Of a stretch of DNA of 64,000 nt, positions 9,044-30,451 are shown piece after piece. The first letter of the stretch is position 1. Every line of letters begins with the position of its first letter. Position numbers and translations under genes: made by a program. Location: positions 3,712,001 to 3,776,000 of the forward strand of contig OY759316.1 in NCBI GenBank assembly GCA_963662275.1, given 5' to 3'. Source of the stretch: Candidatus Cloacimonadales bacterium (lineage in GTDB: Bacteria; Cloacimonadota; Cloacimonadia; Cloacimonadales; DAONDQ01). The notes below the pieces were generated by a model, which was not told where the DNA came from, searched no databases, and saw nothing but the letters and a program-made list of their open reading frames with translations.

Positions 9044-9051
9044 GAATTCTC

Positions 9052-10431: not shown

Positions 10432-10446
10432 GTTATGCCCCCTTGC

Positions 10447-12509: not shown

Positions 12510-12627
12510 CGTTCATCCTCCTATAATCATTACTATTAATTAACTTAGTAAATTAATAGAAGATTATGTTTTTTAAATGTAAAGATAATTCACTTTCAGC
12601 AAAGACAAAAGAAAAAGAAGCAGACGT

Positions 12628-13214
12628 CCACAAGAACCCCAATTATTAGCAACGTATTTACCCGCCATAGAATCTTATATTTCTGCACTATCAGTAGTAG
12701 GAAACACAGCATTTTTGTCAGATATTTCGTTAGGTTTATTGATTGTCGACATTTCTAACCCCCAAGAACCTCAGCTTATAGGTTCCTATATTCCTTCCGG
12801 ATATATCAAAGAGATTGAATCAAGAGATAATCTTCTATATATAATTGAAAACCGTGATTATTTGAAAGTGATCGATGTCTCCAATCCTAATGATCTACAA
12901 ATACTTGGTTCATATGAAACAACTGGCATTGCTCAATCGCTTGCTGTCATTGAAGAGACAGCTTATATCGTAAGCAGCAGTCCAGATTTACTATGTTTGG
13001 AAGTCCTGGATGTTTCTAATCCTGATTTGCCCATCATACTTTTTGATTATCCATTTCATTCTACAAGTCAGATAACAGGAGTATATATTAAAGATAATTA
13101 TCTATTTGTTATGGAACTGATTATGAAGGAAAAGCAATTGCTTCCGGAGTGTATTTTGCTAAGCTAAGCTCAGAAGGAATAAGTACAGGCAGAAAACTGC
13201 TGTTATTGAAATGA
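12628..13214 (+). pseudogene. Relic of an LVIVD-repeat secreted protein fused out of frame to a C-terminal sorting-domain tail
   Basis: LLIVDISNPQEPQ, LKVIDVSNP and LEVLDVSNP repeats with no start or signal peptide; from ~13113 another frame reads GTDYEGKAIASGVYFAKLSSEGISTGRKLLLLK*. Confidence 0.7.
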
Positions 13215-13238
13215 TGAAGATCGCATCATAAGCTGATG

Positions 13239-13556
13239 TTATGCTTGCTGCAGAATATTGATCAGCACTTCCTTGTATTTTTCGAAAGCTCTTCTTCCTC
13301 GATTCGTGAGACGTAATAGGGTATGGGGTACCCGGTTTACAAATTCCTTCATAATCTCGACATAGCCGTTTTGCTCTAATTTCAGTAACTGTGCCGAAAG
13401 ATTTCCTTTAGTCAATCCTGTTTTGCGTAACATGTAAACAAAATCTGCTTTATCCACGACATATAAATATAGCATGATGTTCAGTCGAGCTGGTTCATGG
13501 ATGATCCGATCAATATCTTCAATACTGGTCTCTGTAAGATTGTCTTCAGTTCTCAT
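13239..13556 (-). CDS. Winged-helix transcriptional regulator (ArsR/MarR-like, HTH_34 type)
   Basis: IDRIIHEPARLNIM...LTKGNLSAQLLKLEQNGYV...LTNRGRRAF. Confidence 0.85.
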   Translation of the reverse strand: MRTEDNLTETSIEDIDRIIHEPARLNIMLYLYVVDKADFVYMLRKTGLTKGNLSAQLLKLEQNGYVEIMKEFVNRVPHTLLRLTNRGRRAFEKYKEVLINILQQA

Positions 13557-14151
13557 CTTTCATCACCGGATATACTATCATGAATTTAAGCAACTGGATA
13601 ATTCCGAAGATAAAATCGAAAACACCTAAGATAAAAATGTAAAACATCAGATTGTTATGATGGAGAATGCCAGAATATATTAAAGCAATAAGAGCAAGAA
13701 TTATTACCCCATAAAGAAGAAAGCCTATGTTTTGTTCACAGAAATAACGGTATAAGAGCAAAATTATGATGAAGAGGGCGATACTTATCATTATCCCAAG
13801 GTGCATGTTCTTTTCAATGGCAGGTGAGATACTGTGACTTTGGAAATACAGCATTAAACCAAATCCCAAGATTAGTAGAATGGCTATGAAAATTTGGATG
13901 AAACTCCTGGAAGTTTTCTTATCACTAATTTCTGCATAACCAATCCTGGGGTAAGTGTAACTTTTTTTTAAGATGGATATTAATACAGGAATAAATGGAA
14001 TAAAGATTACAGCAAAATTCATTTTTCCTATTGAACCGAGAATTGCTATTATCATCAGATACAAACCAACAACAATATGAGATATGCCATCCTTATGCTT
14101 CTGTTCATGTAATACATCGATTCTAACTTGAGTAAGAAAGTCATTTTTCAT
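13546..14151 (-). CDS. Integral membrane protein (about 6 TM segments), co-transcribed with the wHTH regulator
   Basis: Hydrophobic segments, YPRIGYA motif, overlap with the regulator start. Confidence 0.7.
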   Translation of the reverse strand: MKNDFLTQVRIDVLHEQKHKDGISHIVVGLYLMIIAILGSIGKMNFAVIFIPFIPVLISILKKSYTYPRIGYAEISDKKTSRSFIQIFIAILLILGFGLMLYFQSHSISPAIEKNMHLGIMISIALFIIILLLYRYFCEQNIGFLLYGVIILALIALIYSGILHHNNLMFYIFILGVFDFIFGIIQLLKFMIVYPVMKDEN

Positions 14152-14168
14152 GATGTTCTCCTTTGATG

Positions 14169-14197
14169 TAAACAGGTTTATGGTGTAAACTTGTTTA
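14169..14197. promoter_or_regulatory. Inverted repeat, probable operator of the wHTH regulator operon
   Basis: TAAACAGGTTTA-tggtg-TAAACTTGTTTA (12-bp arms, one mismatch) just upstream of the 14151 start. Confidence 0.45.
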
Positions 14198-14359
14198 AGA
14201 TAGTATATTCAGTCAAGAAAAATCTCACCCTTTTTTTTGATCCTATTATTAAAAATAACTTGCAGGATTATTTGAATGCATATGTCCTATCACTTTTCCT
14301 TTATATGAATAGAAATTGCATTGTTCATACTTTCCCTAAAAACCTAACTAGGAGGTTAC

Positions 14360-14608
14360 ATGAGGTCTGCAAAAGTCAGTAATCTGGCTATCAGTGACAA
14401 CGGCTTCGTTTTTGATCCGACAACCGGTTACAGCTATAATACAAATGAGATGGGCTTTTTTCTCTTGAAATTAATGGAGGAAGGATTCGAACAGGATGAG
14501 ATCATTACCCGTATCATGGATGAATATGAAGTAAACCATGACACTTTGGAACGTGACCTAGATTTTTTCAGCCTGCAGATGAAATCTCTTGGTTTGCTGG
14601 AAGACTAA
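14360..14608 (+). CDS. PqqD-family / RiPP recognition element (RRE)-like protein
   Basis: 82 aa, AGGAGG RBS; beta segment FVFDPTTGYSYNTNEMGFFLL followed by three helices ending EYEV...LERDLDFF..QMKSLGLL, typical of PqqD. Confidence 0.8.
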   Translation: MRSAKVSNLAISDNGFVFDPTTGYSYNTNEMGFFLLKLMEEGFEQDEIITRIMDEYEVNHDTLERDLDFFSLQMKSLGLLED

Positions 14609-14776
14609 GATGTCATTTTCTTTAGCTCATTTCAAAGGCACGATCGCTGTCAGTGGTCTGAAAACCGGAGATAATCCGCAGCCGGGTGTACCTGTTATCC
14701 GTAGTATCCGCAATGCTGGATTCGAAGGTAAAATCATTGGTTTGATCTATGATTCGCTTGAATCAGGTATCTATGT

Positions 14777-16637
14777 GAGACTGTTCATGAAGTTATTCAT
14801 AATATTCAATAAGTTAGAAAGTAGCAAGTTGAAAAAAGTGGTCGAAACGGTCATAATTTAACATACCTTCCAGAATTGACAGATAAGCTCTGCTAAGGAC
14901 ACCAAATCACAAGTTAAGCTTTTTGACTAAAATTGAAAAACACGCGATTATAAGTAATGTTTCGAAGCCGTTTCTGACTAAATGTGTAGTTAAAATCATA
15001 TAAAATAGTTCTTTACAAGTTTTTTGCTATAGCTTCAATGGCATTTGTTACCTGGTAACAAAAGGGAGGATATTATGACAAAAAAACACTCCAATTCAAG
15101 AAGCGGTAAGTGTTAGTCATGAAAGTAACCAATACCATGTAAGTATTAACGTACCATTTTCATTCACTTTGCCTGAGACAACATCAAACCACAAGTTCTT
15201 AATAGCGTTTCTACGCTTATTAGTAGGAATAGGCGGAGACAACCTCCTTACACTTCAGCAAATAGCTGATCTGTTTAACTACGCAGACCGCAGGAATGTA
15301 CATAATTTCTGGCAAGAGTTTGAGCAGCATGGTCATGATATCCTGGCATATTTAAGCCGGAAAGTTGACCTGCTGGAGTGTATTCCTCAGATCGAGAATT
15401 TTGTTATCAATAACCTGCTTTTACCTTTAAATGTCATGTATCAGGAGTTCATCAGCCATCATGATTTTAAAATGTCCTATACCACTTTCTGCAAATATGC
15501 TTCTCAGGTCAATTCTCTGTCTGTAGTTAAGCAAGCTCAGAAGCTTCTTCTGAAAAAGACAGTAGGCGGTGATGCTGTACATCTGCTGAAACTGCTTGCC
15601 GGTCAGCAGAATACACCTGTTATCTGTGACAGACTCCTGGAACAAATGAAGACTGCTAAAGGCAATACATCCCATAGAACCGCCGATGCAAAGCCGTTCC
15701 ATAGTCTGGAACGCAAGAACCTGTGTCTGCTGGTACATTACCTGGTTGGAAGCGGTATGAACTTCGAGACGATAGCTTTGCTGCTCAACACCTGTAAAGC
15801 TACAGTCTCAAATCTCTGGCATGAAATCGCTGACCTGCAGAGCCTGATTCTGAACTCAATCGGTAAGTGGAGCGGAAAGATCAGCATTGATGAGAAATAT
15901 GTGAAGATCAAAGGTATTCCGTACTATGTCATCAGTATTGTTGATTTTGTGACTCACATCCCTCTGTTTTGTGAGTTGTATCCTGACACAAAGAAAGAAT
16001 CATTCGAAGCATGTTTCAGAACCTTCAGACAGCTCTACAGGAAAGATCCAACCCTGATTGTCAGTGATGGCAGTAAATCGTTAGCAGTTGCAAGAAAAAC
16101 AGTGTTTCCAAAAGTCCATTACCAACTCTGTAAGTTCCATAAGATACGAAATCTCTTCAAAAGAATCAGTCAATGTCATCTCCCTGAAGACAGGGACAAG
16201 TTCTTTAAGAAGAGGATTATGAAAGCTTTCCGAAGAGAAACGGCGGGCGGAAGGAAAAAGGGTATCGCAAGCCTGACAGCTATTACTCCCCCAACCGCCG
16301 CCGAATACATCAAAAGCAATATCATTAGTGATTGGAGACACCTCAGCAAAGGTTTGACTTCCAATGTCTCTGAACGCTGGAACCGCAAAATCAAGAAGGT
16401 GACATCCGGTAGATTTGGACTAAAATCTGAAGAAACCACCCGCAACCTTGTGTTTTCGCTTTGGTTCAAAGAACTGGTCGATAAAGGTCAACCAATCATG
16501 CGTCAGGAATCACTTTTAGCAAGTTTAAATATCTCCCGCATATGTCAAGAAAATGTGGATTGGTCGCACTTAGACCACTTTTTCTCTGTCACTACCAATA
16601 AGGCTGCGTAAAATGGAGGTTAATTTTGAACAGTCTC
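14777..16637 (+). mobile_element. Insertion sequence, 1861 bp, DDE transposase (IS6/IS240-like catalytic motifs, family uncertain)
   Basis: Terminal inverted repeats GAGACTGTTCA / TGAACAGTCTC; 8-bp target duplication ATCTATGT at 14769-14776 and 16638-16645. Confidence 0.92.
15075..16611 (+). CDS. DDE transposase (RBS-linked ATG at 15075 is out of frame by 1 nt at an A7 run; long ORF annotated from 15169)
   Basis: ISIDEKYVKIKG, IVSDGSKSL, QLCKFHK and SNVSERWNRKIK motifs. Confidence 0.8.
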
Positions 16638-17877
16638 ATCTATGTTGACGGTCTTGTGGATAAAGTTTACCAAATGCCCTATCCCTCAGAAGGGGCAGAG
16701 ACATTCATGGATAGGATGGATTACATCCTGTCACATGATAAGATTGATGTCATTATTCCAACCCTAGACTCGGAAATTATTACATATTTACGTCTGAAAA
16801 GTGAATTGATCAATCGTGGGGTGCATACTTTCCTACCTGAAGAAGAACAATTCATCCTAAGAGATAAAACAAAACTCAGCACATTCTTTCCCCCAAAAGG
16901 TATCGCTGTTCCTAAAACAATTATCATGAATGATCCGAGGCAAGCGAAAGATATCTCCAAGGACATACCCTTCCCTGTGATTGTGAAGGGACGATTTTAT
17001 GAAGCTTTTGCAGCAAACAATCCCGATGAAGTAGTTAAATTATACCACCTGATTGAACATAAATGGGGATTACCCATACTTGTTCAGGAGATTATTATTG
17101 GTGATGAATTCAATGTCGTGATCATCGGTGATGGCAAAGGTAAAACAATCGGTATGGTGCCTCAACGAAAACTGGTGATTACAGATAAAGGCAAGGGTTT
17201 CGGGGGAGTTGTTGTTAAGAATGAGAAACTGGAAGCATTTTCCAAGAAGATTATCGAGATTCTGCATTGGCGTGGTCCTTGTGAATTGGAAATCATGAAG
17301 GATAGTAAAGATGATTTTTATCTGTTAGAAATCAATCCCCGCTTTCCAGCCTGGGTAAGATTAGCAGAAGGTGCCGGTCAGAATTTACCCGCTGCAACTG
17401 TAGCCTTGGCTATGGGAGAAAAAGTGGAACCGTTCACCGAATGTAACACCGGAACTCTCTTTATTCGTCATGCAGAAGATTTAATTTCGAATATTGCAGT
17501 GATGGGAGAGATCTCTACAATGGGGGAACTCACGAAGTGCGAAGTGCGAAGTGCAAAGTCCGAAGCGGAAGAGAAGAATAAAACCACGAAACACACGAAA
17601 ATCACGAAAGAAGATAAGTGATAGAATATCTTGCAAAGATGTGTTCCCATTCCTCTCTTTGGATATAGAGAGGTGGTGGTTACTGAGCGTAGTCGAAGCA
17701 TAGTGTCGAAGAGTTTGAGAAACAGTATGTAAATACGAAGTTAAAGAAACTTAGGAAAGATGAAGAGCAGAACTTACTCTCGTCTAATATAGTTGACCCC
17801 CTTAATCCTCCCTTAACAAGAGGGTAAAAGAGCGGGGAACCAGATAAAGACCAGAATTAAAATAAAAGGTGTATAGA

Positions 17878-19227
17878 ATGAAAAAGTCATATAGTCCGCC
17901 CTATATTGAGAAGAACAATGCCGGATTCATGAATAAATTCGCTTATCGCAGCGTCGTGAATTACCAGGATAAAATTGAGAATATTCCGATTGAATCGATT
18001 GTTTCCAAATATGGTTCACCGGTATTTGTTTTTACTGAAGCTACAATTCGTAAAAGATACCGTCGCTTGCTCCAGTCCATAAGTATGCACTATCCGAATG
18101 TGGAAATCTCGTGGTCATATAAAACCAATTACCTGGGGGCAATATGCAAAATATTCCACCAGGAGGGTGCAAAAGCGGAGGTTGTGAGCGGATTTGAATA
18201 TGAAAAAGCACGTGATTTGGGAGTTGCCGGAAGAGATATTATTTTCAATGGACCTGGAAAAAGAGAGCATGAAGTACGCACTGCCATGGAAGATGGAGCA
18301 AAGATACATATCGATCATCTTGATGAATTATTCATGGTGGAAAGAATTGCCAGGGAACTTGGTAAAGTAGCGGAAGTTGCGATTAGAGTCAATATGGATA
18401 CAGGTATCTACCCTCAATGGTCACGTTTTGGCTTTAATTATGATAACGGTGAAGCATATCGAACGATCCAGCGCATCGTTGCCGGCAAGAAATTGAAACT
18501 CACAGGTCTCCATACACACATAGGTACTTTCATTTTAGATGCAAATGCCTATTATGTGGCTGCTTCAAAACTACTGGCATTGGCTCAGAAAGTAAAGGAA
18601 GATTTCCATTTTGCCATTTCCTATATCGACCTGGGTGGTGGATTTGCTTCTAATAACACATTACATGATTCCTATACACCCGGTGAATTCTCTGCCCCAT
18701 CATTTGATCAATATGCACGTGCCATTGGAACAGCGTTCAATGAATCCCAGTTTTCACGGGAAGAATCACCTCTACTCATCCTGGAATCAGGACGTATTCT
18801 TATCGATGAATCAGGTTATCTGATTGCCAGTGTGCTTGGGAAGAAGAACCTTCCAAGCGGAGAGAGAGGTATCATCCTGGATGCCGGTCTGAATATCCTG
18901 TTTACGACTTGGTGGTACAAACTCAAGATAACACCCACCCAGCCATTTAGTGGAACCTATCAGAATACTCTGTTCAACGGTCCTTTATGTATGAATATTG
19001 ATGTAGTTCGACCGCCTTTCAGCTTTCCTGATCTACAGACTGGAGATCACATTCTTGTCAATCCGGTTGGTGCTTATAATGTCACTCAATGGATGCAATT
19101 CATTGAATATCGACCGAATGTCATTCTGATTACAGAAACTGGTGATCTGGAACTCATTCGGGAAAAGGAAACACTCCAGGATGTAATTCAACGGGAACGA
19201 ATCCCTGAGCATTTAAGGAAAATCTAA
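17878..19227 (+). CDS. PLP-dependent fold-type III decarboxylase (diaminopimelate/ornithine decarboxylase-like)
   Basis: YGSPVFV, WSYKTN (PLP lysine), FNGPGK, HTHIG, IDLGGGF, ESGR, GPLCMNID, GAY; N-terminal extension MKKSYSPPYIEK. Confidence 0.85.
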   Translation: MKKSYSPPYIEKNNAGFMNKFAYRSVVNYQDKIENIPIESIVSKYGSPVFVFTEATIRKRYRRLLQSISMHYPNVEISWSYKTNYLGAICKIFHQEGAKAEVVSGFEYEKARDLGVAGRDIIFNGPGKREHEVRTAMEDGAKIHIDHLDELFMVERIARELGKVAEVAIRVNMDTGIYPQWSRFGFNYDNGEAYRTIQRIVAGKKLKLTGLHTHIGTFILDANAYYVAASKLLALAQKVKEDFHFAISYIDLGGGFASNNTLHDSYTPGEFSAPSFDQYARAIGTAFNESQFSREESPLLILESGRILIDESGYLIASVLGKKNLPSGERGIILDAGLNILFTTWWYKLKITPTQPFSGTYQNTLFNGPLCMNIDVVRPPFSFPDLQTGDHILVNPVGAYNVTQWMQFIEYRPNVILITETGDLELIREKETLQDVIQRERIPEHLRKI

Positions 19228-19230
19228 GGA

Positions 19231-21399
19231 ATGTTATCATTCCGCGAAGTCGTCAGTAAAATTGCCTTCATACCGAAAGCGATATTGAACTCATACAGTA
19301 TTATTCTATTTTCATATAATCGCTGGATCGGTTTATTACTATTGTCCAGTACTTTTCTTGCTCCTATTGTAGGGATATCCGGATTGATTGGAGTCCTAAT
19401 CGCACTATTAACAGCAAGGTTACTAGGATTTGAACCTTGGAACTCAACCTCAGGGATCTTGTCATTCAATAGCCTTCTGACTTGCCTTGGAATCGGATTT
19501 TATTTTCCCGTCGCAAGCTATGGTCTTGGTGTGTTATATCTTTTACTTTTCATTGGATCGATATTCACATTATTGCTGTATATCACACTCGATAATTTGC
19601 TCTATGGCAAACTGAAAATACCCTCGATGAGTATGTCATTTTCCATCGTATCTATCTTTATGTGGCTGTTTTTAATGCGCATTGGACATAGTCAGCACTT
19701 GCCTCATAACCAGATGTACGTAATGAATTTCACACCTGTTGTACCTGTATTTGTGCTGAATTATTTCCAAAGTATAGGTGGTATATTCTTTCAACCCTAT
19801 TTCCTGACAGGACTATGTATCGCTGTTGCCTTGTTTTTCATTAGTCGGATAGGATTTCTACTATCAATCATTGGATATACCGTTGGGTATTTTTTCATCA
19901 TTCACTGGGGAGGTAAGGGAGCAAGCGATGTCTTTTATCCCGGTTTCAACATGATGTTGGCAGCTTTTGCGATTGGCGGAATCTTTCTTGTTCCAAGTAG
20001 AATATCCTATTTGTTAGCGATTATAGCTGCCTTCATTGGAATAGTCATTGCGTTCTCCATTGAAACATTATTTCGTGATTTCATGATTCCCCCATTTGCA
20101 TTGCCTTTCAATGTTACCGTTTATATGATAATCTATGCCTTACAATTACGTCTCAAGAATCGAAATCCCTATGTGAATGACTTTAATATACTTCACCCGG
20201 AATTAGCTTTGGAATATTACTTATCCCATATCAACCGTTTTGCCCGTTCAGGAGTTCCCCAGTTCTTCTTACCTATTACAGGTGAATGGACAGTGACCCA
20301 GGGAAATCATGGTGAAATCACACATAAATCAGATTGGGCATATGCCTGGGATTTTGAAATAATGGATCGGGAAGGTAAGAATTATCATCATCATGCCGAG
20401 GAAGTTGATGATTATTATTGTTATGGAAAAGCCGTTTATGCTTCTGCAGGTGGATACGTGGCAAAAATAGTGGATGGTATTGCAGATAATCGAATCAATC
20501 AAATCAATACCGAACAGAAATGGGGTAATTATCTGACCATACAGCACGGTATTGGTGTTTATTCACTTTACGCACATTTAAAATCGGGTAGTGTGAAATT
20601 GAAAGTCGGTGATTATATCCCGCAGGGAGAGAAAATTGCTTTGATTGGTAATTCAGGACGCTCTGCTGTACCGCATCTTCATTTTCATATCCAGACCACA
20701 TATGAAGCCGGCTCAAAAACTTTATTCAGCAATATAGCCAATTATAAGAAACGGGAAAAGGTCAGCCAATCACATTTTATCAGTTTTGGAAATCCGAAGC
20801 TAGCTGATTTGATTTCTCCCCTCATGGCAGAATTGAATTTGCAGGAAATTATGCATTTTCTGCTTTTCCAGAAATTATCCTTTGATGTTACCATTGGGAA
20901 ACGGCATTTTGAAGAAAATTGGGAAGTGGAAGTGACACTAATCGGAACATTTAATATCCACTCTGACCGGGGTAGTTATCTTGATTTCTCCGTTTACAAC
21001 GGTATATATAACGCTCTTGCATTCCGGGGTAATCGGAAAAGTGCCTTATATGCCTTCGCCTTATTGCTTTCCAGATATCCCTATGCAGAGAATCAAACGC
21101 TCGAGTGGAATGATACACCTTCATTCTCTGTAATGATGAAACCATTAATAAAACAAATTGTCTTATTGATTTCTTCTATTGGGAATCCTTTCAAATTTAA
21201 TACAAAATCAATTTCTCATTCGGAAGATAATAAACATGAAGTCGAATCTCTGACAACTGTAAGTTTTTTGGGAAAACTATTGATTAGCTACGAAGGTAGG
21301 ATTCAAATGGAAAAAAAGACTGGTATCGAGATGATCGATATTCACAAGAATGGAAAAGAATATTTACAAGCGCAAAGAATTCAGGATAAGAAATCCTGA
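19231..21399 (+). CDS. Urea-transporter-like membrane domain fused to an M23 metallopeptidase domain
   Basis: N-terminal multi-TM region with GILSFN, SIGGIFF and ALPFN urea-transporter-like motifs; then TQGNHGEITH...AWDF, WGNY, YAHLK, GNSGRSAVPHLHF (M23). Confidence 0.75.
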   Translation: MLSFREVVSKIAFIPKAILNSYSIILFSYNRWIGLLLLSSTFLAPIVGISGLIGVLIALLTARLLGFEPWNSTSGILSFNSLLTCLGIGFYFPVASYGLGVLYLLLFIGSIFTLLLYITLDNLLYGKLKIPSMSMSFSIVSIFMWLFLMRIGHSQHLPHNQMYVMNFTPVVPVFVLNYFQSIGGIFFQPYFLTGLCIAVALFFISRIGFLLSIIGYTVGYFFIIHWGGKGASDVFYPGFNMMLAAFAIGGIFLVPSRISYLLAIIAAFIGIVIAFSIETLFRDFMIPPFALPFNVTVYMIIYALQLRLKNRNPYVNDFNILHPELALEYYLSHINRFARSGVPQFFLPITGEWTVTQGNHGEITHKSDWAYAWDFEIMDREGKNYHHHAEEVDDYYCYGKAVYASAGGYVAKIVDGIADNRINQINTEQKWGNYLTIQHGIGVYSLYAHLKSGSVKLKVGDYIPQGEKIALIGNSGRSAVPHLHFHIQTTYEAGSKTLFSNIANYKKREKVSQSHFISFGNPKLADLISPLMAELNLQEIMHFLLFQKLSFDVTIGKRHFEENWEVEVTLIGTFNIHSDRGSYLDFSVYNGIYNALAFRGNRKSALYAFALLLSRYPYAENQTLEWNDTPSFSVMMKPLIKQIVLLISSIGNPFKFNTKSISHSEDNKHEVESLTTVSFLGKLLISYEGRIQMEKKTGIEMIDIHKNGKEYLQAQRIQDKKS

Positions 21400-21416
21400 T
21401 AGATTAAGGAGACATA

Positions 21417-22025
21417 ATGACTAAGATTTCTTCCATCATAATAATGGTGCTTTTCATAAGTAACATATTATTTGCTCAACCTGCAGCAACACTGCTTCAA
21501 ACATCTTATAATGCAGAAGCCGGCAATAATTTCCAGCTTGCTATTGAATCGATAAAAACCATAGAAAAAGACAACGATGCAGATCCATTTTATAAGTTGA
21601 GACTGGGATGGCTTTATTATAGCTCTGGTCAGTACCAATCTGCTTTGGATTACTATACGAAAGCATCTTCCCTTACAAATTGCCTGGAAGCTAAGGAAGG
21701 TATCATCAATTCTGCTTATTTGCTGGGAAAATGGGATAAAGTCATTGCTACCGGAAATCTGATACTAGATAAATTCCCCGATCATTATTCAGCATTAACA
21801 AAGACTGCTTATTCACAATATGTCCTTAAGAACTATGTAGCTGCTGCCAGTATTTACTATAAGTTACTGAATTATTATCAGTATAACTTGGAAATACGTG
21901 GTTATTACTTAAGCTGCCAGGTTCTTGCAGGTGATCTTGTCAATGCCAAGAGAACATTCCAACAATTGCAGCAATACAGTCCGAACAATCCTTTTATTCT
22001 TGAATATGCCAAGAAATTCCGTTGA
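21417..22025 (+). CDS. Exported tetratricopeptide repeat protein
   Basis: Signal peptide; LRLGWLYYSSGQYQSALDYY and further TPR-like helix pairs. Confidence 0.75.
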   Translation: MTKISSIIIMVLFISNILFAQPAATLLQTSYNAEAGNNFQLAIESIKTIEKDNDADPFYKLRLGWLYYSSGQYQSALDYYTKASSLTNCLEAKEGIINSAYLLGKWDKVIATGNLILDKFPDHYSALTKTAYSQYVLKNYVAAASIYYKLLNYYQYNLEIRGYYLSCQVLAGDLVNAKRTFQQLQQYSPNNPFILEYAKKFR

Positions 22026-22038
22026 TTAAGTTGAAGTA

Positions 22039-23388
22039 ATGAAATTTTCTTTGCTGCTTGTCGTGTTGTGTATTACCAGTATTTTACTTGCTCAATCTAA
22101 TGAAGCAGATGTCCAAGATAGTACCAGGTATATTCAAAACCCTGTTGAAAGTCCAGTTCAACATAATCTGCAAGCTTATGAGTTAATGATGGCTGGTCAT
22201 TATACTCTGGCACTCAAGGAATATGAAATTGCGTTAAAGCTCAATTCATCTGATTCCGTTGCCCGTGAAGGAATTCTCTGGGCTAATAATAGCCTTCATC
22301 GTTGGAAAAATACGATTACCACAGGTCAGAAATACCTGAAAAAGTTTGGTTATGATGCAAACATCGAATTATATCTTGCCTATGCATACTTTGCAAAAAC
22401 AGATTATCTACATGCCCGTCAGTGTTATCTATGGAGCTCTGAATACTTAGGCTGGTATGCAGCAAATACTTCTGGGATGGCTTGGACTTTTCGTATGTTA
22501 GGTGATCATACCAGGGAAAGGAAATTCACTCGAAAATGGGAAATGCTTGTTCCGGATTCACTGAAGGCAATTGTATCTCCCCCCCCCTATCCTCTATATC
22601 TTGGTCATGCTCAATATGCATATTCTACCTGGAATGATAACGAAAAGTCTTTTTTACAGCATTACACTCTTCGCTATCAGAATATTGCAGTTACTTGCGG
22701 AGTAGAAGATATTTGGCAGAATCATCATCTCCTAAGAACTGACTATCTTGCCTCCCTGAATTGGGAAACTCCTATAAGCAGCATGGAATGGAGAGGTAAC
22801 TGGCTGAAAGGGGATTATTCAAATTTATACCCGGCAAATTCGCATTTGATTAGTATCAGTAAACTACTTTATGTATCTAAAACACAGTTAGTTCCGGAAA
22901 TTAATGCAGGATACTCATATTATCCTGTTCTTTCGGTATCACAAATAGCCTTCAAACAATCCTATATTCGTGATTCCTGGTGGTTTAGTTATAGCCATGC
23001 TTTGATATATAAGGATTATGATAGTCCCGGTTTGGATTCCAGGAGTAATTGGGCTACCTGGGATGTTGGGACTAGGTTATTAACTAACCTAACTGTTGAT
23101 TTCTATACATCTCATGGTGATCGGACATTTTATGTGAGCAGGGAAATTGGTGTTGTTGATAACAACGTCTCAGCAAAACTGCAATATGGAGCATACTTAC
23201 AATACAATTACAGAATTTTAAATTTAGGGTGTAGTTACTCTAAATCAAAGCATAAGGATAATGAATATTCTTCAACTGTAAGTGTCAATCTCGGGATTGA
23301 TTATTCCCTGAAGGCAACGTATAACGCTGATCATGTTAAAGCTCATTCTGTAAAGCATGATGCCGAACATGCTGGAGTTAAATTCTAA
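22039..23388 (+). CDS. Exported protein with N-terminal TPRs and a probable C-terminal beta-barrel
   Basis: Signal peptide, TPR helices, aromatic-rich alternating strands, C-terminal Phe. Confidence 0.55.
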   Translation: MKFSLLLVVLCITSILLAQSNEADVQDSTRYIQNPVESPVQHNLQAYELMMAGHYTLALKEYEIALKLNSSDSVAREGILWANNSLHRWKNTITTGQKYLKKFGYDANIELYLAYAYFAKTDYLHARQCYLWSSEYLGWYAANTSGMAWTFRMLGDHTRERKFTRKWEMLVPDSLKAIVSPPPYPLYLGHAQYAYSTWNDNEKSFLQHYTLRYQNIAVTCGVEDIWQNHHLLRTDYLASLNWETPISSMEWRGNWLKGDYSNLYPANSHLISISKLLYVSKTQLVPEINAGYSYYPVLSVSQIAFKQSYIRDSWWFSYSHALIYKDYDSPGLDSRSNWATWDVGTRLLTNLTVDFYTSHGDRTFYVSREIGVVDNNVSAKLQYGAYLQYNYRILNLGCSYSKSKHKDNEYSSTVSVNLGIDYSLKATYNADHVKAHSVKHDAEHAGVKF

Positions 23389-26300
23389 TGAAAGTACGTA
23401 TCTTATTCTTTCTGTGTATCTTCTGCCTTCTCTTAGTCAGTTGCGATAAACGCCATAATAGTAAACTTCCAACCGGTATCTCTCCCTTTGATTATATTGA
23501 AAGTAACATCATTTCCGACAGTACAAATTACCTGGTTCGGAGCACAAATGATGATTCATATATTTTTATTAATAAAACAGCTATTTCCAGTAGTGTCTTG
23601 AAGAAAGGCGATTATCTTTGGTTTTCTCATACCCAGAGTTTTTCAGCCCGTGATTCCGTTGCCATTGCCGATGGGATGAGTCCTATTACAGATGCGCTTT
23701 ATTTCTATGTATATCGTGATTCCATTATGATTCCTATGCAATTCAACACAGGCATGGTCAAGCTCTTTACAAAACCTTTATCAGCTCTTTCCAATGTGAA
23801 AGTGTTGCGTTTTGATGAGAAGTATATTACTTCAGATCATGTGACAGGCATTGCTATGGATAAAGATAATGCCGTCATACCTGTTTCCAAGACAGGTTTC
23901 TTCCAATATTATCAACAGGGGGAAGTTTCCACCTCTGTGGAGTTCACAAGCAACGGTCAAAACTTTTATGCCTGGCATCCTGACTTTTCCACATTTCTTC
24001 CTGCTGATACACAATGGAATGAAAAACATCTGAAATTTACAGAACAAAGCACTTTAACATCCACGCAACAAACACAGGTGGAAACAGTCTTCCCTAGTTT
24101 CGCACAAACGGATAAGATTATTACCTATGAATTATCGGCTGCCGTTACGACAACTCTTTATCCTGAAATCAGGATGTGGAAACAGCCTGCCAAGTTTACT
24201 CCCCAAATGGTTGTATTCCAGCCCGGGACTACAAGTAGCATGTATAGCCTCGATACAGTGGATGATCTTTGGTTAGACCAGGTTACATATAAGGATATAT
24301 ACCTGAAATACCAGGGTACTTATTGCTTCGTCAGCCCTTTATCAGCACAAAACCAGATCACCATTCCTCTCGATGGCACCTTGTCTCAATTGTATTTAAA
24401 CAGGTTATATCTAGATTTGAGAGGGGTTACATTATCGAATGGAAGTCTCAACATCGATCTTTCAAATTACAGCAGAACACTTCCTGCTATATATAATGGA
24501 ACTATTTTCAATGTAACAGATCAAAAACTGCCAGTTACATTTTCTTTTATGCAAAATGGAAGTCCATTAACTGAATTACCGGATTCTCTTTGGATAGAAG
24601 TTGGTATTTCCCTTCCTTCTGGTACAGATACATCAAACCAAAAGTGGTTTGGATATCATTTGGATGATTCTTTGGAAGAATCATTGTACTATTCACTGGG
24701 TACATCTTATGATGCAACGCATTACTCAGTAGCAAATCAATATTTGTTTTTTCCCCTGGCGTTAAGTGGTTTATACTTTTTAGGATCAGATAGCAATACA
24801 TCCCAGTCTTTTACTATCCCTGTCATTCGTGAGTCGGCAATTTACCAGATACGGAATATGACTATCAGTTATGGCGGGGCAATTACGGCAAACTTGAGTC
24901 ATTATTACTTGAATCTGCAACCTCAAGTGGATTTAACACAACCCATATTCCAAGGGAAGCCATATGAGTTAAGCGGAACACAGGCTGCATTCAAGGCTGG
25001 TTTTTTCAAGAATAATGCCTGGACAGATGATGTTCCAAAAACACATCTTATCCAATATCGAAATAACAGACGAAGCCGTAGTAATCATATCCTTATTTAT
25101 AAAAATACTGATGACTGGCAAAAGACGGTTTTACTGACATCAGGTAATCAACTGGATGTAAGCCACTTTGTGCAAAGCGGAACAGATTACACGATTGGTG
25201 GCATCATGGGAGGCAATTACATCCTGACGAATGTGGATAACCTGTCTTCAGCAAGTATCGATTTTGCTCTGTACAGTCACATGTACATAGATTTTGGCTG
25301 CTTGCGAATTTCACGTGATACAGACAATGCAATTCCTTCCGATTATTATCTGCGTGCCCAGATTGATCGCTATATGCCGAGAAACGGCAGGACTTTACCT
25401 GCAATATTCCAGGGTGATATCTTTGATGTGAATGATCCCAAGATACCCGTTACGCTTTCCTATCAGCATAATGGTTCCACTGTAACCAGCCTTCCTGATT
25501 CCTTGTGGATGGAAGTGGGGATTTCACTACCATCAGGTACGGATACTACTGGACAAAGCTGGTTTGGATATCATTTGGACAGCACCATCGAAGAAGAATT
25601 CTATTCGACCCAAGCGACTTCTTATGATGCAAGTCACTATACAGTTGCAAATCAATTCCTGTATATTCCCCTTGCAGTAAGCGGTTTGTATTTTTTAGGA
25701 TCAGACAGCAACACTTCCCAGGAACATTTAATACCAGTTCTACGTGATGCGGCTTATTACCAGATGCCAAATATATCTGTCAGTTATGCAGGAGCTAAAA
25801 CAGCCGGTCTGAGTAAGTACTATTTGAATCTGCATCCGCAGGTTGATTTAACTCAGTCAATCTTTCAGAGTAAACCATATCAGTTGAGTAATACCATTGC
25901 TGCATTTCGTGCTGGGTTCTACCAGGGTAATGATGAGAATGCAACTTGGACTGAAACTGTACCCAGCAGTCACGTCATTCAATATAGAAGTTCAAGACGT
26001 AATCGCAGCAACCATATTTTAATCTACAGCAATACGGATAACTGGCAAAAAGTGTTATTGCAGAAAAATGGCAGCCAGATCGATGGAACACATTTTATGC
26101 AAAGCGGTTCAGATTATACGATTGGTGGTATTTTGGGAGGTACTTATCTATTGGCAAATGTGGATAATATAGCTGCCACTAACATCAATTTCGCTTTGTA
26201 CAGCCATATGTATCTTGATTTTGACCGAGTGAAGCTGTTTCATAGTTCTTCTGATGCTGAGCCAACAGGATACTATCTGAATACCAGGATTGACAATACA

Positions 26301-27071
26301 TTCCCTGATAGCCGAAATATCATTCAAAATCAATATCAATTACAGCAGACATCCTGGAATTACCATATTACTGCATATAATGCCACTTCACAGATTGATG
26401 CAGCCTTTTTGAAGCAGTATCAGCCTGTACTGTATTTTGCTACAACACAAAGGAACACGCCAACATTGGTGCACTTAAATCAAGACCAGGATTACCGTAT
26501 CTACACCTATCCTCAAGGTACAACACTAACTGCATATAATTATATTTCAATTAACGGATTTGAAGAAGTGATACCAAGCTACAATGGCGACTATTGCTCT
26601 TTCAGTGATTCCAGCCCACATACTGCCATCACTACGCTAATACATGCCACGACAACGGAATTAATTACTTCATTATACCAGGCACAATTTATTTTACCCG
26701 CTTTTTTTGTTAATACTGCTTTTCCAGTCGGGTATAAAATAAACCTCTCTGAAACAACAGAAGCGCCCGTGGGTACCCAGTTATTGTCCGGTTATCGCTT
26801 AATTTTTCTTGATAATAACAATAATCCTATTGATTTGAATCTTATTCAAGACTATGTGACTACGAATTACCCTTATATGTATCTGCCTTTCCCCCCAGCG
26901 AATGTTTCCAGCAACTTTCATGTACGATATATCAATGCCTTGGGAGTCAGTACTGATTATTCGAGAGTAACAAGTTTCAGCGGGACTTCCTCTACGGAGT
27001 TTATAGTAGTTGGCAATTGTGTTGTTTTGCCTGTTAATGCAAGGGGAAGATACCTGATTTCTTCTAATTAA
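23388..27071 (+). CDS. Large hypothetical lipoprotein with a ~305-aa internal duplication
   Basis: Lipobox LLVS-C; repeats begin RTLPAIYNG (24474) and RTLPAIFQG (25389); start overlaps the upstream stop. Confidence 0.7.
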   Translation: MKVRILFFLCIFCLLLVSCDKRHNSKLPTGISPFDYIESNIISDSTNYLVRSTNDDSYIFINKTAISSSVLKKGDYLWFSHTQSFSARDSVAIADGMSPITDALYFYVYRDSIMIPMQFNTGMVKLFTKPLSALSNVKVLRFDEKYITSDHVTGIAMDKDNAVIPVSKTGFFQYYQQGEVSTSVEFTSNGQNFYAWHPDFSTFLPADTQWNEKHLKFTEQSTLTSTQQTQVETVFPSFAQTDKIITYELSAAVTTTLYPEIRMWKQPAKFTPQMVVFQPGTTSSMYSLDTVDDLWLDQVTYKDIYLKYQGTYCFVSPLSAQNQITIPLDGTLSQLYLNRLYLDLRGVTLSNGSLNIDLSNYSRTLPAIYNGTIFNVTDQKLPVTFSFMQNGSPLTELPDSLWIEVGISLPSGTDTSNQKWFGYHLDDSLEESLYYSLGTSYDATHYSVANQYLFFPLALSGLYFLGSDSNTSQSFTIPVIRESAIYQIRNMTISYGGAITANLSHYYLNLQPQVDLTQPIFQGKPYELSGTQAAFKAGFFKNNAWTDDVPKTHLIQYRNNRRSRSNHILIYKNTDDWQKTVLLTSGNQLDVSHFVQSGTDYTIGGIMGGNYILTNVDNLSSASIDFALYSHMYIDFGCLRISRDTDNAIPSDYYLRAQIDRYMPRNGRTLPAIFQGDIFDVNDPKIPVTLSYQHNGSTVTSLPDSLWMEVGISLPSGTDTTGQSWFGYHLDSTIEEEFYSTQATSYDASHYTVANQFLYIPLAVSGLYFLGSDSNTSQEHLIPVLRDAAYYQMPNISVSYAGAKTAGLSKYYLNLHPQVDLTQSIFQSKPYQLSNTIAAFRAGFYQGNDENATWTETVPSSHVIQYRSSRRNRSNHILIYSNTDNWQKVLLQKNGSQIDGTHFMQSGSDYTIGGILGGTYLLANVDNIAATNINFALYSHMYLDFDRVKLFHSSSDAEPTGYYLNTRIDNTFPDSRNIIQNQYQLQQTSWNYHITAYNATSQIDAAFLKQYQPVLYFATTQRNTPTLVHLNQDQDYRIYTYPQGTTLTAYNYISINGFEEVIPSYNGDYCSFSDSSPHTAITTLIHATTTELITSLYQAQFILPAFFVNTAFPVGYKINLSETTEAPVGTQLLSGYRLIFLDNNNNPIDLNLIQDYVTTNYPYMYLPFPPANVSSNFHVRYINALGVSTDYSRVTSFSGTSSTEFIVVGNCVVLPVNARGRYLISSN

Positions 27072-27257
27072 TCATTGTAAAGCGGAACTCTGTTCCTGCT
27101 AAATCTCTGAGGACACCACTCCTGTTGAAAACGAATATCTGGAATGGTCTTTATATCTTCTCTTTCAGCAACCAAACGATACCCTATCATTATACCCGAA
27201 TAATCCTTATTCTAATCCAATTTGAAACTTGTATCATTCCAGTTTCTCGAAACAGGA

Positions 27258-27301
27258 ATGAAACTGGCATGAAACTGGTATGAAACTGGTATGAAACTGG
27301 A
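27258..27301. repeat. 11-bp tandem repeat (ATGAAACTGGN)x4
   Basis: Directly visible. Confidence 0.8.
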
Positions 27302-27463
27302 TAGAACTTGGTATAATCTTAGGGGAATATTAGTGAATTGTGACCCTTCCTGGACATAATTTATAATTGATATACATACTCATGAAGGATATGCATCTTG
27401 TCCCAAATTGCAAATGTCTGCATGAAATGTGATTTCACACAGACATCAGCTTAACAGATCGTG

Positions 27464-27712
27464 TTAAATTTCCATAAACTTGGCAGTGACATGCGGTAGA
27501 TCATTCAGCTTTTTCATAAATTCATCCACATTACAAAAATTTGCCCCCAATTGCAGAATAATCAAACCTGAAGAAGAGCATTTATCGGTTTCCACTTCAT
27601 GCAATCCCAGCCTGGTTTTGATACAGCAGCCAAATTCTGTAAGAATATTTTGCACATCAACGGCTTCAGTGTCTCTTTTTTCAATTCGAATCATGATTAA
27701 TTTGTATAACAT
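27464..27712 (-). CDS. Small ACT-like protein similar to the TM1266 iron-only hydrogenase system putative regulator
   Basis: VQNILTEFGCCIKTRLGLHE...GLIILQL pattern; GGAGG RBS. Confidence 0.6.
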   Translation of the reverse strand: MLYKLIMIRIEKRDTEAVDVQNILTEFGCCIKTRLGLHEVETDKCSSSGLIILQLGANFCNVDEFMKKLNDLPHVTAKFMEI

Positions 27713-27807
27713 AATACCTCCATACTTTTTAAAATAATAACTGCTATTGATTTCAAGTCAATTAATTAATCCTGGTTTCGATAATCTTCTATCAGTACCA
27801 GGTTTCC

Positions 27808-27915
27808 TGGGATGGAAAGGATAAGAATAAACTTGCCTGTTCCAGCAGAATATACTTCTGTTGCTTGGAAACACAGTGACAAAGAATCACAAGGAAAATG
27901 CTGCTGCTGAAGTAA
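27808..27915 (+). pseudogene. Orphan 3' end of a sorting-domain gene, paralogous to 30344-30451
   Basis: Reads WDGKDKNKLACSSRIYFCCLETQ*QRITRKMLLLK*, followed by the same GGGAACA heptamers as at 30452. Confidence 0.7.
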
Positions 27916-27940
27916 GGGAACAGGGAACAGATCCAGAAAA

Positions 27941-28050
27941 AGACCCCCCTACCCCCCTTCTCAAGGGGGGATTAGAACGGGGAGACTAAAATTAAGTTCA
28001 GATGCGACTCTCCTTACATTCCCCCCTTGAGAAGGGGGGTAGGGGGGTCT
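27941..28050. repeat. 110-bp MITE/REPIN-like element with perfect 30-bp terminal inverted repeats
   Basis: AGACCCCCCTACCCCCCTTCTCAAGGGGGG (27941-27970) and its exact reverse complement (28021-28050). Confidence 0.8.
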
Positions 28051-28085
28051 AAAGTAAGCGTTCCAATTAGAATCTTGGAGAAGAT

Positions 28086-30451
28086 ATGACAAAGACATTG
28101 TTTTTAACACTGGCTTTTCTCGGTACAGGAATCCTCTGCGCCCTTACTCATTCAGTTAACCTGGACGGTTCTGCCCAGTATACTTCTATCCAGTCCGCAA
28201 TAAACGCATCAGTAGATAATGACACAGTGTTGGTCTATCCCGGTCGGTATTTGGAAAACATTACAATCCTGAATAAAAGAATTATACTGTGTTCCAAAGA
28301 AATGACGACAGGCAATCCCGTTTATATAGGGCAAACCATCATAGACGGTCGGAGATTAGGCAGTTGCATCAAAGTATCTGGAACTGGCTCCAATGGACTG
28401 GCATCAATAATTAGAGGATTCACAATCACGAATGGACAGGGAAGTATGGGTGAAAATGTATTCTATCCGGGGGGGGGGGCACAAATTGGTTATCATGCTA
28501 ATGTGGAGTTAGTTAATAATAGAATTTCTGATAATCGATCTGATGTGGGTGGTGGAATCTATTTATCATCTGGTTCAATAAGTTTGCAGGGAAATAGCAT
28601 CCATAATAATATTGCTTCTGTTATGGGAGGTGGAATATATATTGGTTATGATTCTATTGTTAATTTCAATGCAACTAATCGATGTAATTTCTATAGCAAT
28701 TATTGTGGTCAGGGATCTGATATTTTGTTTGATAATTTTCAAATAACACCTACTATTTATGCAGATACTATATCTGTTTTCACTACATCTACATATTACA
28801 TTAGAAATGATCATGGATTTTACGAAGTTCCTTCTCAGCCTATTATTTTTGCAAATCATGCATATATAACAGAAATCAACCATGATTTATTTGTTTCCCC
28901 TGATGGAAATGATGCTAATGACGGTTTAACTTCTGCAAGTCCATTACGAGCAATTGCCATAGCATTACAAAGAATAGCTTCAGACAGCCTCAATCCCAAA
29001 ACAGTATATCTTGCACCTGGCGAATACCGTCAATCAGAAGGTCAGATTTTTCCGATACAATTAAAAGCATATGTTAATTTCGTAGGGAGTGGTCAGGAAG
29101 ATACACGATTAATCTTAGATGATCCTATTTTCCCTGCAAGTGGAATTGTTGGTAGAGTTATTCAAAATATTGAACTTCGTGAATTTACTTTAAATGGAAC
29201 AAATGTTCAGGGTAATTTTGGCATATTTTTAGCTCCTGAGATTGTAACTGCCAGGGTTCTGATTGATAAAATCTCTCTGGAATATATAAACAGTTTACAT
29301 ATTAATTCAAACGAACCATCATTAGGTATTTTCCAATGTCGCAATGTTATTATTCAGCGTTCTGTTTTTAGAAACAACAGATCTAGTGGTGTAGCAGGAA
29401 TTAGGCTAAATGGTTCTTCCGGTTTAATAGAAGATTGTACTTTTAAAGATAATGTTGCTGATGATCTTTCTCATGAACTGGCACTTGGCTGTGACATTGG
29501 AGCTGAAGTTACTGGTAATTTACAGATTCGAAATTGCATTTTTTCCGGTGGGCAGACCACATTCAATAATCCCGAATCATTGCATGGTATAGTTAGCATA
29601 GAAAGTAAAACCGGAACAGATACTCATATAGAAATTGATAACTGTTTGTTCACTGATAGCCATGCAATGGGTGGAGCTGCTTATACCTTAAGCTGTGAAA
29701 GTCCTGGTGAGATGAATTTAACAAACTGTACTTTTGCCAATAACACGTCACTGGAAACAGCAGCAGTCCTGAATGGTTATATCAATGTGAAGAACTGTAT
29801 ATTTAACAATCCGACAACACGTGAGATCATGCTTGGCTATCAGGGTGCATATGGGGTCGCTACAAATCTTCATATAGATTACAGTGATGTTAGAGGTGGT
29901 GCTGTTTTAATACCTTCTCCCCAATATTATACTTGGGGTGTGGGAAATACTACTTTAGACCCGCTCTTTGCCAGCACGAATCCGCTTGATGACGATTATC
30001 TGTATCTGACAGCTAATTCACCCTGCGTGGACACTGGCACACCGGATACCACAGGGCTTTTCCTTCCTCTTGCAGATTTAGCGGGTAATTACCGTATCTG
30101 GAATAACCGCGTTGATATGGGTTGCTATGAGTTTGGTTCTCCTACAGGGAATGAAGATGAGATACCCGCTGAAGTGGTTGCTACGAAGCTGTGCAATTAC
30201 CCAATCCGTTCAATCCGAGTACGACGATAAGTTTTCATATTCCTGTAAGCTCTCATGTGAGCCTGTCTGTATATAATATCAAAGGGCAGAAAGTAGCACA
30301 GTTGATCAATGAGAATATGCCATTGGGGCAGCATAGCATTGTATGGAATGGAAAAGATGATAATGGAAATGCCTGTTCCAGCGGAATATACTTCTGTTGC
30401 CTGGAAACGCAAGGACAGAGAATCACAAGGAAAACGATGCTGATGAAGTAA
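28086..30451 (+). CDS. Secreted beta-helix (pectin-lyase-like, DUF1565-like) protein with a FlgD/T9SS-like C-terminal domain; frameshift at ~30200
   Basis: Signal peptide, YTSIQSAIN, FVSPDGNDANDG, SPCVDTG...VDMGCYE; the NYP-NPFNP tail continues in another frame (30191-30451). Confidence 0.75.

Follow-up and report, generated by a model that had tools for sequence, protein, structure and literature searches.

What does a cell make when it encodes, in one row, a peptide-binding domain, a ligase, a decarboxylase, a channel fused to a peptidase and an outer-membrane barrel? The question is raised by a locus of Candidatus Cloacimonadales bacterium, found in a stretch of 64,000 nucleotides (positions 3,712,001-3,776,000 of the closed 4.38 Mb genome; hereafter the window). 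A preliminary description made from the sequence alone had reported seven co-oriented genes at 14360..27071 of the window. All seven are present and the domains assigned to them were borne out: a PqqD-family protein (PF05402) of the RRE type known from pathways to peptides made on ribosomes and modified after translation (RiPPs), an ATP-grasp ligase, a fold-type III pyridoxal phosphate (PLP) decarboxylase, a urea transporter (UT) fold joined to an M23 peptidase domain (UT-M23) and tetratricopeptide repeat (TPR) proteins, followed by a putative lipoprotein. We found that six of these genes, for RRE, ligase, decarboxylase, UT-M23, exported TPR protein and TPR-barrel, travel together as a cassette conserved across Cloacimonadota, Bacteroidota, Myxococcota and other groups. 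Tentatively, we propose that the cassette builds an unbranched amide product on the N-terminal tail of its decarboxylase and exports it.

The gene neighbourhood was analysed with two baits, a UT-M23 alignment (best 80 of 592 confirmed loci) and, in metagenomes, the decarboxylase (best 80 of 599). Being the best 80 of about 600 matches each, the scans describe near relatives only, in phyla other than the monoderm ones, and linkage was counted only at loci with enough flank. Querying contigs with a single protein returned no match and the UT-M23 alignment query succeeded. Around UT-M23 we found the decarboxylase at 69/70 loci, the ligase at 63/63, the RRE at 60/60 and a match to the barrel profile, which includes the TPR part, at 55/66. 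Among the 11 loci missed by this profile, seven encode a barrel of 272 aa that lacks the TPR part and can be aligned to the profile (hhalign 95.5%), three encode forms of ~600 aa with weak matches and one has none. Around the decarboxylase, the ligase was present at 64/64 loci, the RRE at 61/61, UT-M23 at 60/63 and the barrel at 33/37. The four-gene core hardly varies in order (its median gaps are -4, 18 and ~10 bases), the TPR and barrel genes are swapped between lineages, and split cassettes occur at four loci (L093, L122, L148, L164). The co-occurrence of the cassette genes is far beyond chance. The earlier idea of a dedicated system with ligation and decarboxylation chemistry is supported.

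Cassettes were detected in Cloacimonadota, Bacteroidales, Cyclobacteriaceae, Ignavibacteria, Chlorobiota, Balneolaceae, Rhodothermaceae, Myxococcales and proteobacteria. Within Cloacimonadota, UT-M23 was found in 87/232 genomes and the decarboxylase in 50 of the 114 near-complete ones, all 50 being also UT-M23-positive; related genomes are not independent in these counts. A sample of 61 Bacteroidota genomes contained a full-length strong match in five, the centre genome included. The distribution of the cassette is patchy within genera. A search of plasmids returned only two archaeal LysA matches (30%). Around the cassette, an AraC-type regulator was found near 15/80 loci, mostly just upstream. 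Four Bacteroidales loci (L037, L047, L054, L065) carry an IF-2B/ribose-1,5-bisphosphate-isomerase-like gene between the decarboxylase and UT-M23, and five full-length Acyl_transf_3/HGSNAT genes lie in or beside the cassette among 80 loci (L034, L041, L050, L051, L084); both genes are possible clues to tailoring. Directly upstream of the RRE gene, four loci (L041, L045, L056, L090) encode a conserved secreted protein of ~285 aa with a tail like those of the type IX secretion system (T9SS), which goes with the cassette variant bearing the TPR-less 272-aa barrel.

The place of the seventh gene, which the preliminary description had left uncertain, could be settled: the lipoprotein is a lineage-specific partner in Cloacimonadota and not part of the universal core. 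Its C-terminal part was found in 41 of the 114 near-complete genomes, all among the 50 decarboxylase carriers and in 0/64 others, and it was not seen at the non-Cloacimonadota loci of the UT-M23-bait scan. The 1227-aa protein has an internal duplication (residues 363-660 against 668-969, 63% identical) and no Pfam or NCBIfam match; residues 20-640 gave no usable ESM Atlas match, which says nothing on novelty.

The copy of the cassette in the window is interrupted. The ATP-grasp gene is split after ~56 codons by an IS256/Mutator-like insertion sequence (IS) of 1861 bp, a break on which the preliminary description is silent. The element ends in inverted repeats of 11 bp and is flanked by a target duplication of 8 bp (14769-14776 and 16638-16645). 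The genome holds 39 full-length copies of this element, 29 of them 100% identical, and 8-bp duplications flank 36/39. Both ligase halves match the intact homolog of locus L026, and they are in frame by length, with 380 codons together. Contigs from the sequencing runs of two studies span both junctions, ending inside the element, and the depth over the element in run contigs is ~30x that of the flank; a joint skipping the element is not listed among these contigs, which drop rare alleles. The insertion is real and recent. Because it splits the ligase gene, this copy of the cassette probably does not work; all genes but the ligase are of full length. The tight spacing reported for the locus holds for most of it and fails at 17621-17878, a gap with a genomic repeat: the 3' end of the ligase gene and this gap contain two small genome-wide repeats, 17532-17615 and 17644-17722 (21 and 25 genome matches, respectively), the first of which lengthens the ligase frame by ~28 codons.

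Databases often name the decarboxylase of the cassette diaminopimelate decarboxylase, and the preliminary description had asked whether it could be the only and canonical LysA. Its best match in the PDB is FigC/FslC (7kh2, E 2e-62), with LysA at E 2e-38. It reaches 215 bits against the lysA model TIGR01048, below the cut-off of 297.9, and 245 bits against NF041039, below the cut-off of 500. The decarboxylases of five other cassette genomes score 205-228 bits against the lysA model, all below its cut-off, and four of these five genomes have a separate LysA, at odds with a canonical LysA. In the genome studied here no separate LysA was found, the sole other fold-III enzyme being similar to ornithine decarboxylase (ODC; C1:1273098-1274297). 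The genome carries dapB-dapF at 2312278-2313812, and lysine auxotrophy, with diaminopimelate made for the wall, is possible.

In the alignment of the cassette decarboxylases K82, C371 and M372 are invariant, Met following the catalytic Cys in 55/55. In ODC, arginine decarboxylase and diaminopimelate decarboxylase an acidic residue at this place binds the distal amine of the substrate, and FigC has Met (PMC7857480). FigC, SbnH, MccE and BtrK decarboxylate conjugated amino acids, FigC acting on free N-citrylornithine (PMC7857480). Its citrate contacts H357 and R387 align to I374 and Q404 here, both invariant. By its sequence the cassette enzyme belongs to the conjugate-decarboxylating type; given the Cys-Met loop and the replacement of the His/Arg pair by I374/Q404, its substrate is probably a ligated amino acid with an uncharged acyl part. 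The order suggested earlier, decarboxylation of a basic amino acid and then ligation, is not supported, since Cys-Met replaces the Cys-acidic pair, as it does in FigC, an enzyme whose substrate has been ligated beforehand. The rhizoferrin enzymes FigA/FigC (FslA/FslC) and SbnH share with the cassette the WSRFGF segment and the Cys-Met loop and include the closest solved decarboxylase, 7kh2. Nevertheless, the rhizoferrin route comprises a synthetase of the NRPS-independent siderophore (NIS) type, the citrate-binding His/Arg and a siderophore receptor or major facilitator superfamily (MFS) exporter, none of which is in the cassette; no NIS synthetase gene occurs among its conserved neighbours.

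FigC also lacks a leader-like tail, a difference of ~22 residues judged from the alignment offset. The preliminary description saw no precursor peptide, which holds for a separate gene; a leader-like segment does exist, as the N-terminus of the decarboxylase. These ~22 residues follow the pattern [Y/F]xxPx[I/V]...G...K[F/Y/H]G, with P8 and K20 invariant in 55/55 aligned decarboxylases and Gly at +1 in 50/55. The motif with a Lys exactly 15 residues after the Tyr/Phe was found in 149/149 locus decarboxylases with an N-terminus that passed the completeness filter, truncated frames having been dropped, and in 120/120 database homologs, a set picked by a profile including the tail and possibly overlapping the former. 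Column conservation in the tail (0.65) comes close to that in the core (0.71) and is 0.38 in the linker. The motif is absent from the first 40 residues of 68 ligases and 56 RREs (0/68 and 0/56).

This pattern resembles that of lasso peptide leaders. Discrete lasso RREs recognise [Y/W]xxPx[L/V/I/F/A] (PMC13381572), and in lasso precursors YxxPxL spans -17 to -12 with a recognised residue at -2 (PMC10368454), which puts the tail Lys at the lasso -2 position. The nearest solved relatives of the cassette RRE are the lasso B1 proteins TbiB1 and TfuB1 (profile against PDB, 5v1u E 5e-13 and 6jx3 E 2e-8). Modelled as a complex, RRE and tail scored 0.58 against 0.02 for the best control; contacts agreed between runs by at least 81% and partner pLDDT was at least 57. 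The mark it passed was met by 116/157 solved and 2/215 mismatched pairs, with scores of up to 0.60 in only 18 of these solved pairs and in both mismatched ones, so that the score lies in a weak range. Thus the motif itself is seen, and binding of the tail by the RRE is weakly modelled. Lasso B1 systems share with the cassette the RRE family, the leader motif and its spacing; in contrast, they have a separate precursor, a B2 protease and a cyclase, and the cassette has none of these, its leader is fused to an enzyme and its -2 residue is Lys. Two further systems invite comparison: LPP systems, in which LppB is of the same RRE family and RREs present leaders to membrane peptidases (PMC13381572), and fosfazinomycin, in which small-molecule assembly takes place on the YxxP-led peptide FzmZ and the stand-alone RRE FzmT can be dispensable for chemistry (PMC13622209).

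As very short precursors are easily missed (PMC13622209), short open reading frames (ORFs) were searched as well. Among the short ORFs listed near the cassettes none is conserved, and those with YxxP are scattered. An upstream ORF of 65 aa that looked conserved was rejected as a precursor, since larger secreted proteins have it as their C-terminal sorting domain. Over 160 loci, the tail profile matched only at decarboxylases, apart from one copy in L047 that is separated at an N-run. In this genome, neither the tail profile nor an RRE search revealed a second tail or a second RRE. Tail-less relatives of the decarboxylase, checked for carrier proteins, gave no lead; they comprised one LysA, one ODC, one lone enzyme and two frames left unassigned.

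The fourth core protein combines a channel with a peptidase. In its AlphaFold2 (AF2) model (pLDDT 91.5) the channel part takes the UT fold (Z 37 to 3k3f), the M23 domain (Z ~13) matches wall hydrolases in fold, and the C-terminal sheet resembles known folds to a middling degree (Z 9.5 to 4fvs, 7.6 to LolA). The pore Phe, Asn and Leu of urea channels (UT/SLC14; dvUT, 3k3f) are kept. Urea channels have two central Thr, which we take to be dvUT T130 and T294, and no M23 fusion; in the cassette proteins both Thr are replaced (Ser in 48/49, Ala/Ser in 39/49), and urease genes do not lie nearby. Replacement of such a Thr by Val impairs urea flow, the data covering Thr-to-Val only (PMC12171576). The M23 domain has the full zinc site of LytM, MepM and Csd1, with the ligands H365, D374, H484 and, in addition, H449 and H482 invariant in 49/49. 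Unlike these peptidases, it is fused to a UT domain, carries the extra sheet and is predicted to lie on the cytoplasmic face, because the Lys/Arg density alternates from loop to loop and peaks just after the last helix, at 0.16 per residue against 0.003-0.07 in outside loops, and because the UT domain ends intracellularly, as does the link between tandem UT domains (PMC12171576). Because of this placement it is probably not a wall hydrolase, which makes the previously suggested coupling to peptidoglycan doubtful.

The AF2 model of the TPR-barrel protein (pLDDT 87.6) consists of TPRs and a barrel of ~14 strands. Its top Foldseek match is BcsC (9b8a, E 1e-9, TM 0.33), with generic porins at ranks 3-7, PelB at rank 8 and the polysaccharide secretin 4y25 at rank 12. 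A wide structure search (VIA) gave Z 19 to the OmpG and FadL barrels and also found TPRs. ESM Atlas neighbours are named YaiO-family barrels, and the YaiO Pfam model matched 0/40 barrel members. In the operons for poly-N-acetylglucosamine (PNAG), alginate, cellulose and Pel, an outer-membrane TPR protein guides the polymer to a porin (PMC9384988). Synthase-dependent export (BcsC, PgaA, PelB, AlgK/AlgE) shares with the cassette an inner-membrane channel, a periplasmic TPR, an outer-membrane barrel and the existence of fused and split TPR/barrel forms; the Acyl_transf_3 gene occasionally seen in or beside the cassette is a further likeness. It differs in having a glycosyltransferase, absent from the cassette, whose inner part is a UT fold and whose barrel is smaller; no polysaccharide synthase gene was found among the conserved neighbours of the barrel.

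For the order of chemistry, the closest precedents are CtaE/CtaD/CtaF and BtrI/BtrJ/BtrK, which likewise join an ATP-grasp ligase, a fold-III PLP decarboxylase and a partner of ~80 aa (PMC7183216, PMC7857480). CtaD and CtaF alternate and build tri-beta-alanine on a carrier, CtaF being inactive on free Asp, and the butirosin pair performs one such cycle with Glu (PMC7183216). In those systems the small partner is the carrier; in the cassette it is an RRE, and we propose the tail Lys as carrier. A phosphopantetheinyl carrier is not conserved in the cassette, where the only conserved small protein is that of the PqqD family. Cta and Btr also have a transacylase or tailoring set, which the cassette lacks, with a channel-peptidase and an outer-membrane barrel as core instead. 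By this proposal, the RRE would grip the [Y/F]xxPx[I/V] motif and, from the lasso register, present Lys20 to the ligase, which may couple the Lys amine to an acidic amino acid (Asp, Glu or aminoadipate) through the carboxylate of its side chain. The PLP enzyme would then remove the alpha-carboxyl of the tethered residue and so create a new amine, and by the CtaD/CtaF precedent these cycles may repeat. At the channel mouth the cytoplasmic M23 domain would hydrolyse the product off its carrier, and a product free of side chains could move through the UT pore, then along the TPR proteins in the periplasm and out by the barrel. In the genome of the window the ligate-decarboxylate line would probably be off, the ligase being split. 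Loading, decarboxylation, possible repetition, release and export make up the most economical reading of the six genes, and we hold it as a leading but tentative one.

Several points weigh against this reading. The best PDB matches of the ligase are generic (CarB, 2pn1), and FigC, the closest enzyme to the decarboxylase, takes a free substrate. In CtaD/F and BtrJ/K the carrier is a phosphopantetheinyl protein, and one is encoded near 95% of CtaD homologs (PMC7183216). Lys20 could be structural or substrate-binding, and the RRE-tail score, besides lying in the weak range, may stem from likeness to the solved lasso B1-leader complexes. The pore may still be urea-sized, since its aromatics and Asn are kept, the ~14-strand barrel matches generic porins as well as exporters, and an adjacent UT-M23 is absent at 3/63 decarboxylase-bait loci. 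Finally, no substrate, product or modification has been observed.

Nearly as likely, although still to be held loosely, is that the tail serves as a scaffold only. The RRE would clamp it to the ligase or to UT-M23, and free substrates would be turned in the style of FigA/FigC into an acyl-diamine that is trimmed and exported; in detail, Orn or Lys may receive an acid on its side-chain amine by ligation and then be decarboxylated, a route we consider possible to the same degree. This agrees with FigC as the closest characterised enzyme, working on a free conjugate (PMC7857480), with the ODC-like gene and dapB/dapF in the genome and with a stand-alone RRE, FzmT, that chemistry can do without (PMC13622209). 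It leaves unexplained why the Lys past the motif is invariant and always equally far from it, and it accounts neither for a zinc hydrolase fused to a pore nor for a TPR-barrel devoted to a small diffusible amide.

The boldest form of the carrier proposal is a good deal less probable. Here the cassette would be a processive synthase-and-secretion machine for a nylon-like homopolyamide (poly-beta-alanine, poly-gamma-aminobutyrate (poly-GABA) or poly-aminovalerate). The tail Lys, offered by the RRE, would serve as primer, and ligase and decarboxylase would take turns in lengthening a chain free of side chains, which would thread a repurposed urea channel with a planar-amide-binding filter, be cut by M23 and leave through the TPR-barrel in the manner of cellulose or PNAG.

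A role in tailoring the envelope is a little less probable again. The cytoplasmic enzymes and M23 would edit a wall or lipid-linked precursor, for instance by placing a diamine on a stem peptide, or a surface protein, and the barrel would act on the lipoprotein as Slam does. A TPR domain with a 14-strand barrel is the layout of Slam, 1/40 barrel members hits TPR_Slam (E 0.006), the M23 fold matches wall hydrolases, and the lipoprotein gene follows that of the barrel and is confined to cassette genomes (41/50 against 0/64). Against this stand the absence of the lipoprotein from all non-Cloacimonadota loci of the UT-M23-bait scan, the lack of mur/dcw genes conserved near the cassette, its patchiness within genera, its broken state here and the cytoplasmic placement predicted for M23.

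We regard as unlikely a RiPP-like system in which the RRE delivers the fused leader to M23 for a cut after F21, switching the enzyme or releasing a peptide. The exact lasso register and the Gly at +1 would fit such a cut, as would the way in which the RREs of LPP systems offer leaders to peptidases of the membrane (PMC13381572). Yet a 450-aa enzyme per peptide is costly, the -2 residue is Lys and not Thr/Ile/Val, the ligase is left without a role, and the tail and short-ORF searches found neither a variable core nor a separate precursor. More improbable still is uptake and breakdown, in which an amide or amine enters by way of barrel, TPR protein and UT, is cleaved by M23 and is then activated for catabolism by the ligase and the decarboxylase. 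UT channels are passive, with no fixed direction of flow, and the AraC-type regulator near 15/80 loci would suit a catabolic role; the cassette, on the other hand, has no conserved dehydrogenase, transaminase or TonB receptor, and the pairs of ATP-grasp and conjugate-decarboxylase are biosynthetic in all cases examined (PMC7183216, PMC7857480). A housekeeping lysA with unrelated neighbours, as the database name, dapB/dapF and the want of another LysA-like gene in this genome might suggest, can be dismissed almost entirely given the sub-threshold scores here and in 5/5 other genomes, the separate LysA in 4/5, the Met in 55/55 in place of the acidic residue and the travelling of the gene with the cassette.

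The features of the locus are collected in Table 1. The start of the decarboxylase is taken at ATG 17878; the ORF finder places it at GTG 17869.

Table 1. Features of the cassette locus, in window coordinates.
Feature	Position	Strand	Remarks
Stand-alone RRE, PqqD family, 82 aa	14360..14608	+	PF05402, E 1e-10
ATP-grasp ligase gene, 5' part	14610..14776	+	72% identical to L026 residues 3-59
IS256/Mutator-like insertion sequence, 1861 bp	14777..16637	+	transposase ORF 15169-16611; outside the system
Second target-duplication copy and ATP-grasp gene, 3' part	16638..17621	+	PF15632/PF02655; 61% identical to L026 residues 49-352
Leader-like decarboxylase tail, codons 1-22	17878..17943	+	Y5-x-x-P8-x-I10 ... 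K20 (codon 17935-17937)
Fold-III PLP decarboxylase, FigC/FslC-like, 449 aa from ATG	17878..19227	+	7kh2, E 2e-62
UT-fold channel, M23 and C-terminal beta-sheet domain	19231..21399	+	domains ~1-310, ~340-505, ~535-720
Exported TPR protein, 202 aa	21417..22025	+	TPR families; hydrophobic N-terminus; conserved neighbour
Signal peptide, TPR and ~14-stranded outer-membrane beta-barrel, 449 aa	22039..23388	+	structure model
Putative lipoprotein, 1227 aa	23388..27071	+	lipobox-like LVSC, residues 16-19; no family match

Rfam gave zero matches over 12500-28200, and a promoter scan near the cassette was not above shuffles (14 against 9.0 ± 3.5). Directly downstream of the lipoprotein gene lies a tandem array of 11-nt units (27249-27314), followed at 27941-28050 by a perfect 31-nt inverted repeat with a 48-nt spacer, which has 222 genomic BLAST matches, 40 of them 40 nt or longer, and looks like a small non-autonomous repeat or an element of the repetitive extragenic palindromic (REP) kind. 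Two probable pseudogenes flank the locus: a secreted beta-helix protein (28086-30451) with its C-terminal sorting domain in another frame (30191-30451) and, at 12715-13211, a fragment with LVIVD repeats whose sorting-domain remnant lies apart from it. The whole genome contains 235 reading frames with a C-terminal FlgD-Ig/T9SS-like sorting domain, very many for a non-Bacteroidota bacterium. The other neighbours are ordinary, a 2-oxoacid dehydrogenase operon, a CPF_0552/TM1266-like protein and a DDE_Tnp_1 transposase (within 7712-12509, 27464-27712 and 31944-33266).

The cassette lacks a defining feature of every family tested; each module has a precedent, and the mechanism is a proposal. Whether it might match an already characterised pathway had been raised at the outset. 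No such pathway and no description of the combination were found in the literature searched, with subscription journals outside reach. The text and one supplement of the RRE survey PMC12710340 contain no decarboxylase, urea or M23, while its large data tables could list this RRE.

Current annotation misleads, calling genes of the cassette lysA, urea transporter and carbamoyl-phosphate synthase. Intact copies exist in two cultured strains, Rhodonellum psychrophilum DSM 17998 (L038) and Algoriphagus sp. CAU 1675 (L068), and the copy described here is a natural ligase knockout, with the lipoprotein partner in addition. If the proposed mechanism is true, an RRE reading a leader fused to an enzyme would widen the roles of RREs and explain RRE clusters that lack a precursor, and export would have a new route, from a UT channel bearing a cytoplasmic peptidase into a TPR-barrel. 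Furthermore, if the product is a polyamide, it would be a biological nylon and a new class of extracellular polymer, made by a carrier logic and by uses of RRE and UT that are new as well, and would matter to biofilm biology and to materials.

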